Origin: Podarcis gaigeae | Taxonomy: Eukaryota | Length of the DNA: 64,000 bases | Reading direction: 5' to 3' (one strand) | Assembly: GCA_964106915.2 (NCBI GenBank) | Contig: OZ066915.1 | Shown here: one piece after another, positions 50,701 through 53,700 of the stretch | Numbering within the stretch: position 1 is the stretch's first letter | Layout of the letters: every line of letters begins with the position of its first letter | The notes under the pieces: model-generated | Seen by the model: only the letters and a program-made list of their open reading frames with translations | What the model was told of the DNA's origin: nothing | Databases searched by the model: none | Position numbers and translations under genes: made by a program

Positions 50701-53700
50701 TTCTATCCAAAAACCTGGACCACAGAACATGCTGAATGGCATCCTGAATGGCATCTTGGTGGGATTTCCTTGTTAGATTTGCATCAATGGAGGCTATCCT
50801 CTCACCTTGTACGACTCTTGGCGATATCAGTCAGCAATTGGGTTAGCTGATTCAGGATCCTTGCCCAATGCCTGTGGCAATAGAGTTGTGGCTATTTCTA
50901 TCCCAAGCTGGTGCCATGTCTTTCTAACCGCATTCACACTGTTAATCCCCTCCTCCCCGGCTTTGGCTGCAATATTTACCATTAGGTTTGGTGCAGGCAC
51001 CCAGCAGGTTAACCACATTCAGATGGTTTCCAATATGGATGAGGATCTTCAGCTCTGACATAAGTGCTTTGTGTTCACTTGCAGTAGCTCCCTCTGAAAA
51101 CAATGTTACAATTATCCCTTAATTGCCACTTCTAGCATCCAGATAGCTCATATCTATGTTTGTCACCCAAAACCATTCCTGAGATAGATAGTTACAGATA
51201 GGTAGCCGTGTTGGTCTGCCATAGTCAAAACAAAAAAAAATTCCTTCCATTCCTTCCAGTAGCACCTTAAAGACCAACTAAGTCAGTTCTTGGTATGAGC
51301 TTTCGTGTGTATCTGAAGAAGTGTGCATGCACACGAAAGCTCATACCAAGAACTGACTTAGTTGGTCTTTAAGGTGCTACTGGAAGGAANNNNNNNNNNN
51401 NNNNNNNNNNNNNNNNNNNNNNNNNNNNNNNNNNNNNNNNNNNNNNNNNNNNNNNNNNNNNNNNNNNNNNNNNNNNNNNNNNNNNNNNNNNNNNNNNNNN
51501 NNNNNNNNNNNNNNNNNNNNNNNNTAAGAAATTGTTTGCAAATGTTACATTGCAAAACTTGATATGATTCATCCAAAACAAAATATTAATTTCTTCATTC
51601 AGCATCCCGTCTTCTAAGAGAGAGGAGAGGAAAGCGTAGTCTTTGCAACTACTTAGCATGGACAACTTCTCTTGACAGTAAGTTGTTATTTGTTTGTTGA
51701 CACCAGTGCAGCAAAGGCTTTGTTATTCAAACATCTGCCTCTTTCAGCTCAGTACATTGGGAGTAAATGTACTCACACTAAAATCAATGGGACATGCTTC
51801 TAAGAAAACATGTATAGGCTTGAACTTTAAGAATGCCATACAATGCAGCCACCATCATACATTCACTGGGCCTGTACGGCAGTGCCAGTACATTAAAATG
51901 TGTCATGCTCTGCTATTATAAGAAAGCTTAAGAAAAATAATTATAAATATGGGGTGGAATTCAGTGTAGTGCTAAGTTCTACTCATGCAGCCAGACTTCC
52001 CACCCCCATGTCCCCTAAGCCAAGTGTGGATGTCCACAAGCCCTGGAGATAGAACAGGAACATTGGGTGGCCTTTGCAGAAATCCCTACCTGAATTGCTC
52101 TTGGCCATTTGAAATTATGACTACAAGCATTTATGGAAAGCTCTAATTTCAAGGGGTTTGGATTCTTTTTGGTTCTGATTGTAACAGATGGAACCACAGC
52201 TTAATGCCTGACTGCAGCACCGTGGTTAATTCTGACAAACAGCGCAAGGTATACCCACAGGTTTTCCTGAACAGCTGCTATATGAAGGTTCCTACCTGGA
52301 GAATCTGAGCAACGCTATTCTTGTCTACTGAGATAACTATTCTATTGTTGTTCCATTAGAGTATGTCACTTACATCTGTTTCCTCCTTGTTATCATCTGC
52401 ATTATCTCAGCTGATCTTTTTCTCTCCTGTAATCAATCTTTGGGCACTGTAACATTTTTTTTGGAGACTCATTGGCCCACTGGGAGAACAGACATGACAG
52501 TTTACCTAGTGGTAACTTACCATGGTATTGAGTACCCATCTGATAATCCAATAACAAAATGGTTTTACCAATATAAACAGCTGGCTCACCAACTGGTTCC
52601 ATGGGTCCCAAGTTATCACTTGGGTCATCTATATTAACGGGTTATGGAGAATCCTCTCTGCCCTCATTTTATTGGATCTGATGTTGATCTGACTTTTAGA
52701 GCCTCTGTAGGTCAGCTCTGTTTGAAGAAGGCCACCTTCCCCTCACTCCCTGCCCAGCTGTATTGGGAGGAATGGGACACTGTTTAGCAGTTACTGACTG
52801 ACAAACAGTCAAAGGCAAAGAAACTGAAGATTCAGAAAAGGCTATAGCTAATTACTTCTACGGAGGAAGATCAGCTTAGTGGATCCTGCTGGCAGAAGAA
52901 CATATTGGGGTAGGGTTGGGAGATGATGAGGAATTTGCTTAAATCATGGAGAAATGGACTTCCAGAAAGAAAAAATTAACCAAGTGAGTGTTTTTAGACA
53001 GACAAGTAATACTTAGATATCATTTATTACGCCTACCTTTGAGCATTTTTACTGCCACTGTCTCACAGCTGTTACTCTTATTAATTCCAAATGCAGAGGC
53101 TTCCATCACTTTCCCAAAGGCTCCATGGCCCAGGACTTTACCTGAAAAAAGAAAGTTTTTTTTGGGGGGGGGGGAGAGAGACAGCGTTTAAAAAAAAAAG
53201 GCCAGGGTGCAGTTAGATGAACTCATTTCATGTAATGACTGTAACAGTCACTGAATGGGATCAAAACAAAACAGGAAACTGGGACAAAAAAGAAGAAAAG
53301 GTGTGAAAAAAGGAAGAGGAAAGAATGGCATTTTCACCATCTCCAGGTGGCTGTATTTTTAGAGAGAGGGGAGGAAGTGAGACAGACGCAGAGTCAACAA
53401 AGCAGAGGAAGGAAACAGATAGCTGAAAATGAGGTGTCATTTTTTGTTGCTGTTGACCAGAGCGCATGGGAAAGGTGAGGCTATACTGCATAGGTATGAG
53501 AACTTCATCATTGTTCCATCAATGCCTGCATTTGTGGCAGCCCTAAATAAGCTGGGTGTATGGGCTGTTCTAGAATGTGCTGTGTTCTGAGACTGAATAG
53601 ACAATGGCTTCTTTAGTTATTTTGTGGTGCAAACCAACTTTCATAAATGGCAATTGGATTTGCAAAGGCAAGCTGGAAAGGAGAAAAAAAAGAAGAGCTA

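Follow-up and report, generated by a model that had tools for sequence, protein, structure and literature searches.

A head-to-head stub of a hammerhead-bearing Penelope-like element in an intron of a VEGF-receptor kinase gene of Podarcis gaigeae

The hammerhead motif and its place in the host intron

The window analysed here, a 64,000-nt stretch of contig OZ066915.1 from Podarcis gaigeae (assembly GCA_964106915.2), includes a VEGF-receptor kinase gene on the minus strand, which, by its diagnostic residues, is probably FLT4 rather than KDR or FLT1. A hammerhead ribozyme motif (Table 1) lies within an element in a 1.9-kb intron of this gene (51094-53036), ahead of the exon reading GATASEH...TKPN; by human exon numbering, this is presumably intron 18. 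The exon at 50980-51093 is covered by itself in a contig of run X1, a run only presumed to be RNA. The motif is on the plus strand and thus antisense to its host, as had been predicted; the minus strand, transcribed by the host gene, has no CUGAnGA box in this copy and carries the GAAA half only. Elsewhere in the window, positions 20001-22000 have a G+C content of 57% (about 40% in the remainder), and are likely a CpG island or the promoter of a neighbouring gene. Two 54-nt copies at 50152-50205 and 54731-54784, 74% alike, are probably an older repeat.

The motif has the features of the type I hammerheads of Penelope-like elements (PLEs): CUGAnGA and GAAA boxes, a UH cleavage site, a G10.1-C11.1 pair, and stems I and II, with A51320 unpaired between positions 9 and 10.1 and a palindromic 15.1-16.1 segment. 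The original prediction held that this additional A might lower activity, but an unpaired base between 9 and 10.1 is typical of the family (PMC4209133). It was right about the location of the motif and about the cleavage site, 3′ of C51342 (H17): boxes and stems can be read directly in the sequence, and the only match in the whole window to a complete descriptor of the minimal hammerhead (stem I of 4 bp, the two boxes, at least 4 bp in stem II, UH) is at 51309-51346, with one of 200 pair-block shuffles containing a match (mean 0.005). A looser pattern also matched the window once, and had matches in 4 of 100 shuffles; neither scan found a second sense core in the window. No Rfam hammerhead model matches 49-54 kb at E ≤ 10. 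Rfam matches in this interval were to miRNA-hairpin models only, under their gathering scores, and are explained by the long hairpin described below. In isolation the 38-mer folds into stems I and II, with a stability not above that of its own shuffles (z = -0.44). Stem II and its loop (51321-51334) form a perfect 14-bp palindrome.

Table 1. Positions of the hammerhead motif, the arms of the insertion, and the neighbouring host exon in the window.
Feature	Position	Strand	Remarks
Host exon, 114 nt	50980-51093	-	acceptor about 96 nt from element
Target-site duplication, 13 bp, left copy	51179-51191		from L001
Inverted arm	51190-51310	-	element +24 to +133, inside stem II to end of the "tail"
Element ATG, inside inverted arm	51222-51220	-	
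Inverted repeat, 63 bp	51250-51312/51327-51389		98% complementary; near-perfect RNA hairpin on either strand
Sense arm	51307-51389	+	from element +2 into the U-rich zone where reverse transcription first starts; identity to both L222 terminal repeats 100% (83 nt)
Minimal type I hammerhead motif	51309-51346	+	sequence, descriptor scan; 11,465 exact cores
Stem I	51309-51312/51343-51346	+	4-nt 5′ arm and 3′ arm
CUGAAGA box	51313-51319	+	sequence
Extra A after CUGAAGA	51320	+	sequence
Stem II, 5 bp, 4-nt loop	51321-51325/51330-51334	+	sequence
GAAA box	51335-51338	+	followed by GC, UC, and stem I 3′ arm
Palindromic AGCU	51338-51341	+	sequence
H17 (C51342)	51342	+	sequence; predicted cut 3′ of C51342

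Element positions are numbered here from the A of a TCAGT initiator-like motif (+1), which places the TATA box at -30 and the ribozyme cut at +37. The window copy is a head-to-head stub of about 210 bp with a 13-bp target-site duplication, and contains only the two front ends of the element, joined via a 4-nt GT-rich overlap. The sense arm extends a few letters beyond its last readable base in the window, and its right end is visible in the own-genome copy L001. The inverted repeat takes up the 3′ half of the hammerhead. A 9-nt tandem duplication at 51240-51257 is private to the inverted arm of the window, being absent from 29 other copies. In a related organism (H), contigs of two runs follow the window to 51191 and then diverge for 723 nt, so that the FLT4 insertion site appears to be empty there, as read from the point where the contigs exit and not from the far side; one contig from organism G continues into the element.

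The parent family and its coding copies

The 30-nt hammerhead core occurs in 11,465 exact copies in the 1.51-Gb genome (reversed control, 0). Among descriptor hits in the loci examined, all of one family, 167 of 183 are identical and the rest have scattered single changes. Longer family copies lead upstream into a GIY-YIG domain, and four of 20 loci chosen for the ORF N-terminus (L211, L220, L222, and L225) have open frames of at least 900 aa. In L222 the repeat-ORF-repeat unit is complete, and either side bears a TATA box and a hammerhead; the 910-aa ORF of L222 contains an RVT_1 domain (Pfam, E = 9.5e-12) and then a C-terminal GIY-YIG domain (7.8e-6), with the GIY-YIG CCHH motif (two Cys between the half-motifs, two later His) present in the translation. 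The hammerhead is therefore located in the terminal repeat of an element with reverse transcriptase and GIY-YIG domains, and the original identification of the motif as a type I minimal hammerhead from a Penelope-like element holds, the same core being found in the terminal repeats of L222. The family ORF starts at +101, 64 nt after the cut, and the TATA box is 30 nt before the TCAGT initiator-like motif and 33 nt before +4. Two other loci considered as full-length copies, L137 and L138, were rejected on inspection.

The linker before the GIY-YIG domain includes CNKPRCQLC (CX4CxxC) in L101, L102, and L222. According to PMC8557442, a CX2-5CxxC linker is given for Neptune and Nematis elements and not for those of the Penelope/Poseidon clade. 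The latter, which is recognised by the absence of a Zn-finger-like motif from the linker, was rejected for this family, and assignment by the linker motif points to the Neptune (or Nematis) type. A search of the Atlas gave unnamed GIY-YIG clusters only.

The identity of the window sense arm to L222 over 83 nt suggests that the family is young and probably still active, and the open frames of at least 900 aa make working copies likely. The same identity, together with the apparently empty site in organism H, bears out an earlier supposition that the element is a young one. A domesticated intronic ribozyme, which would be a single copy with orthologous conservation, was rejected, with 11,465 copies and a site apparently empty in organism H. 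Contigs from four runs presumed to be RNA fall mostly between +1 and +133 of the family, mirroring the genomic copies; transcript start, strand, and level are not readable from them.

Ends of the copies and the template RNA

Among the first 100 cores on contig C1, 49 copies begin at +1 to +8, 13 at 0 to -5, and 38 further upstream, the last group being the one to which copies in the -10 bin of this count belong. Genome-wide, +4, where stem I opens with its first G, is the exact starting base of 2,819 copies, and only 2,734 read exactly through -9. Copies beginning at the cut site number at most 101 (164 - 63); the 164, against 72 and 79 at neighbouring positions (uncorrected for point mutations), are a small local excess, which suggests that some cleaved RNA may be copied. 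Cut-site starts were found in 14 of the first 100 of 495 by eye, five of the 14 being explained by stem I overlap, and in 4 of 30 by script. In unselected loci, which had been picked for holding the core, none of 84 arms starts at the cut. Of 20 loci that extend into the ORF, 18 have the ORF segment fused directly to a copy starting at +1 to +6.

A G immediately precedes +4 in 73 of the first 100 copies listed (by eye) and in 26 of 37 by script, with 31% expected; in a comparison with internal ends, G precedes +4 in 21 of 30 cases and internal ends in 11 of 45 (p = 1.3e-4). In L1 and SVA, an untemplated G at full-length 5′ ends has been read as a copied cap (PMC4859970). The pile-up of starts at +4, the few starts at the cut site, and the extra G together suggest that the template is a capped, uncleaved RNA starting on the hammerhead; copies that hold both the core and the downstream start sites must derive from RNA uncut at +37, which makes uncut RNA the template. 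Overlap with the partner arm could account for part of the extra G. The starts at +2, the kind found in the window (51307), do not fit a copied cap, the preceding base being T in 29 of 37; these perhaps reflect an untemplated A on the cDNA or a misread modified first base. In a literature search by title and abstract that covered few subscription papers, no report of a start-site pile-up, a cap-derived G, or twin priming in Penelope-like elements was found, but Fig. S2 of the study of PAc (Poseidon_Ac) from Anolis carolinensis (PMC11167929) may show genomic 5′ ends.

The architecture of the stubs was compared across 93 loci, 78 taken in order along C1 and 15 chosen as long pairs. These contain 57 head-to-head pairs, of which 53 have a tail on one arm and not the other (p = 6e-12) and 44 a duplication of at least 7 nt (mode 12-13 nt); 3′ ends in the 93 loci cluster at +91-95 and +129-133. 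The exact junction of the window is present at 65 places of 11,465 and other junctions vary, the head-to-head junction forming afresh with every insertion. The window copy and 16 of the 53 one-tailed pairs have a truncated tailed arm and an untailed arm that reaches the RNA 5′ end, so that neither contains the other. At a two-state site, the arms agree in 81 of 89 pairs and disagree in 8, with 42 disagreements expected, in a set that mixes selected and unselected loci and in which L070, counted among the 8, consists of two independent insertions. In most pairs, then, the two arms share a single RNA or source locus, and for short pairs, arms from two RNAs drawn freely from the pool were rejected. 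Five long head-to-head pairs (L116, L137, L138, L158, and L169), unlike the short ones, have arms that differ at the two-state site near +49; these arms may derive from different repeats or RNAs.

An insertion mechanism can be proposed from these ends. Transcription would begin from the TATA box 30 nt before the TCAGT initiator, both motifs being present and their use supposed; this spacing would place the RNA start on the first base of stem I or slightly upstream of it. Nicks made by the RT-endonuclease in the two target strands would lie about 13 nt from each other, as the observed duplication suggests, and each nick would prime reverse transcription at about +91-95 or +133, where the 3′ ends are seen to cluster, by analogy with Anolis PAc in vitro. 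One cDNA would run off the RNA 5′ end and the other would stop in stem II, and the two would likely be joined via a short overlap. In PMC11167929, PAc is described as nicking and extending both strands, starting reverse transcription at two internal sites, and using unprocessed RNA; the protein is predicted to be a dimer.

Other origins can be envisaged for both the 5′ ends and the inverted arm. The pile-up at +2 and +4 might mark a splice acceptor or a reverse transcriptase stop rather than a capped start. A pyrimidine tract and CAG just before stem I are acceptor-like, AG precedes +4 in 16 of 26 G cases, and an intron of D. virilis Penelope ends at helix I (PMC4209133), but there is no shared upstream exon (the preceding letters are flank, partner arm, or ORF pieces ending at +169 to +871), and the exon start expected at +3 is rare, with 6 of 225 arms as against 33 at +2 and 30 at +4. 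A reverse transcriptase stalled by stem I, for its part, should halt at the 3′ side of the stem. This makes either explanation distinctly unlikely, and a start on the hammerhead itself is preferred. As for the inverted arm, a single cDNA that folds back and primes itself, or else an antisense template, could have given rise to it instead of two nicks; such an origin has been proposed for Adineta elements (PMC3846280), and the short overlaps and small palindromes at the junctions would fit it, as would the arms being mostly identical. It nonetheless seems unlikely, in view of the 16 one-tailed pairs and the window in which the truncated arm is the tailed one: with neither arm containing the other, one folding-back cDNA cannot give both. 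It is very improbable that the 200-bp palindrome is a non-autonomous mobile unit in its own right (MITE- or SINE-like), copied whole from a master. Forty scored copies do share nearly the whole 200-bp layout at 92-96%, and the agreement of the arms in 81 of 89 pairs would also be expected of it; however, the search that gave the 40 copies was seeded with the window junction, only 65 of 11,465 places have that exact junction, junctions and right ends vary by copy, same-junction copies carry either allele, and arm agreement follows equally from copying one source RNA twice.

Activity of the window copy and relation to known systems

The ability of the window copy to cut was assessed from folding in context, as an equilibrium prediction with protein left out. 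The inverted-repeat hairpin has energies of -116.9 and -113 kcal/mol (z about -21). In four upstream contexts (at least 17 nt upstream), the probability of stems I and II is 0.0000, with a penalty of 21-30 kcal/mol for forcing them; for the motif in isolation or in the family's own 5′ context, the predicted values are 0.5-0.7 for stem I and above 0.9 for stem II (0.5 and 0.94 in the family context specifically). Folds of the growing chain of window RNA give stem II a probability of 0.054 and then 0, the hairpin winning before the cut site is complete. A transcript starting inside 51290-51307 would escape most of the hairpin, but even in an RNA of 51307-51389 stem I reaches only 0.02. Unlike the family, the window copy has no TATA box or promoter of its own, and plus-strand RNA would therefore have to come from upstream; a transcript reaching the motif this way carries the inverted arm first, so that stems I and II are predicted to be abolished, also during synthesis. 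With no TATA box, stems predicted to be lost to the hairpin, and no CUGAnGA box on the strand transcribed with FLT4, the window hammerhead is likely inert.

The original prediction foresaw a competing hairpin, which does exist as the 63-bp inverted repeat; it is no mere side effect, being the other half of the insertion and bringing stems I and II to zero in the predicted folds. The accompanying suggestion of a potentially active self-cleaving RNA, notable for its position in FLT4, finds no support in one of 11,465 cores that has no promoter and whose stems the hairpin is predicted to abolish. An active ribozyme would have to cut antisense FLT4 transcripts either alone or as a dimer in trans with other copies. 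Its core is intact and the same as in full-length copies, stems I and II are predicted to form in the isolated motif, and the hammerhead of Anolis PAc cleaves when its protein is present, although only then, according to PMC11167929; single PLE minimal hammerheads showed no cleavage (PMC4209133). Against this, the hairpin removes the predicted fold, the copy has no promoter of its own, the window contains no second sense core, two 38-mers are predicted to pair via the 14-bp stem II palindrome and not via AGCU, and the site is apparently empty in the related organism H. Activity of this kind is thus very unlikely. We consider it highly probable that the motif is instead a passenger, belonging to the hammerhead-carrying front part of a young Penelope-like element of Neptune type, lying head-to-head in the intron, promoterless, locked in a predicted hairpin, likely non-cleaving, and made as a stub from uncut RNA. 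For FLT4, little effect would be expected of a recent insertion that puts a 63-bp hairpin in an intron about 155 nt from the splice acceptor; at most, the hairpin is a putative RNA-editing target or has a slight effect on splicing.

Motif, carrier, and inverted stub all belong to known kinds (PMC4209133, PMC11167929, PMC3846280). With the PLE minimal hammerheads of PMC4209133, reported in turtle and snakes and having little activity as monomers, the family shares a short stem I and larger stem II, the unpaired base between 9 and 10.1, the G10.1-C11.1 pair, palindromic 15/16 positions with no real stem III, and an occurrence as thousands of dispersed single copies; it differs in that nearly all copies are identical and that the motif begins at the likely transcription start. 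The same paper proposes a cleaved circular RNA as template, which the 5′ ends found here do not support as the main route. PAc, as described in PMC11167929, likewise has a hammerhead in its terminal repeat, two internal reverse-transcription start sites that define the tail, nicking and extension of both strands, and an unprocessed RNA template, the last two being deduced here from sequence; compared by description, the present family differs in its CX4CxxC linker and in an ORF that starts at +101 and not inside stem II.

Insertions with inverted pLTRs, as described in PMC3846280 and PMC8557442, also have head-to-head partial repeats, a 30-40-nt tail on one arm, and short target-site duplications, and in those elements a TATA box precedes by 20 bp a TCA(C/G)T motif that resembles an initiator. 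The window copy differs in being reduced to two front ends, and PMC3846280 invokes self-priming on an antisense template. L1 twin priming (PMC4859970) is comparable in that a second nick primes a second cDNA and in the untemplated G at full-length 5′ ends, but L1 pieces are adjacent parts of one RNA, whereas here they overlap, with one stretch copied twice.

For the study of Penelope-like elements, of their cycle and of the role of their ribozyme, the family provides a very large and young record of insertion ends. The genome data support the in vitro picture from PAc (uncut template, two start sites, both strands primed), and the family further suggests, in a form open to testing, that the capped 5′ end falls on the first base of the ribozyme. 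A possible but doubtful extension of this may be put forward tentatively. If the RNA is capped on the first base of the hammerhead, as the extra G in thousands of copies might indicate, cutting at +37 would remove the cap from the message and would also, within the 3′ repeat, sever both reverse-transcription start sites from the coding RNA, so that the ribozyme would act as a protein-timed off-switch and not as a template maker; jumps from the capped end onto RNAs ending at about +180-190 would build tandem hammerhead units, providing a birth route for reptile retrozymes.

Non-LTR retrozymes, as described in bioRxiv 10.64898/2026.07.22.740005, are likewise derived from PLE terminal repeats. 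The window copy itself was rejected as one, being a single inverted pair and not a series of head-to-tail tandem units with a hammerhead in each. Some family loci do consist of head-to-tail hammerhead units of about 180-190 nt, close to the mean of 176 bp given there for reptile retrozymes, with tandem joints at the RNA 5′ end and not, as in retrozymes, at the cut site. Head-to-tail units of about 180-210 nt, each with an intact hammerhead, were observed at L111, L117-L136, L072, and L110 (C1, C2), and in such units the first codons of the ORF are joined to the RNA 5′ end; they represent the dimer-capable form and possibly an origin of retrozymes. One locus, L120, is a three-unit tandem with two identical joints 183 nt apart, which could reflect either a template in circular form or more than one jump along the same RNA.
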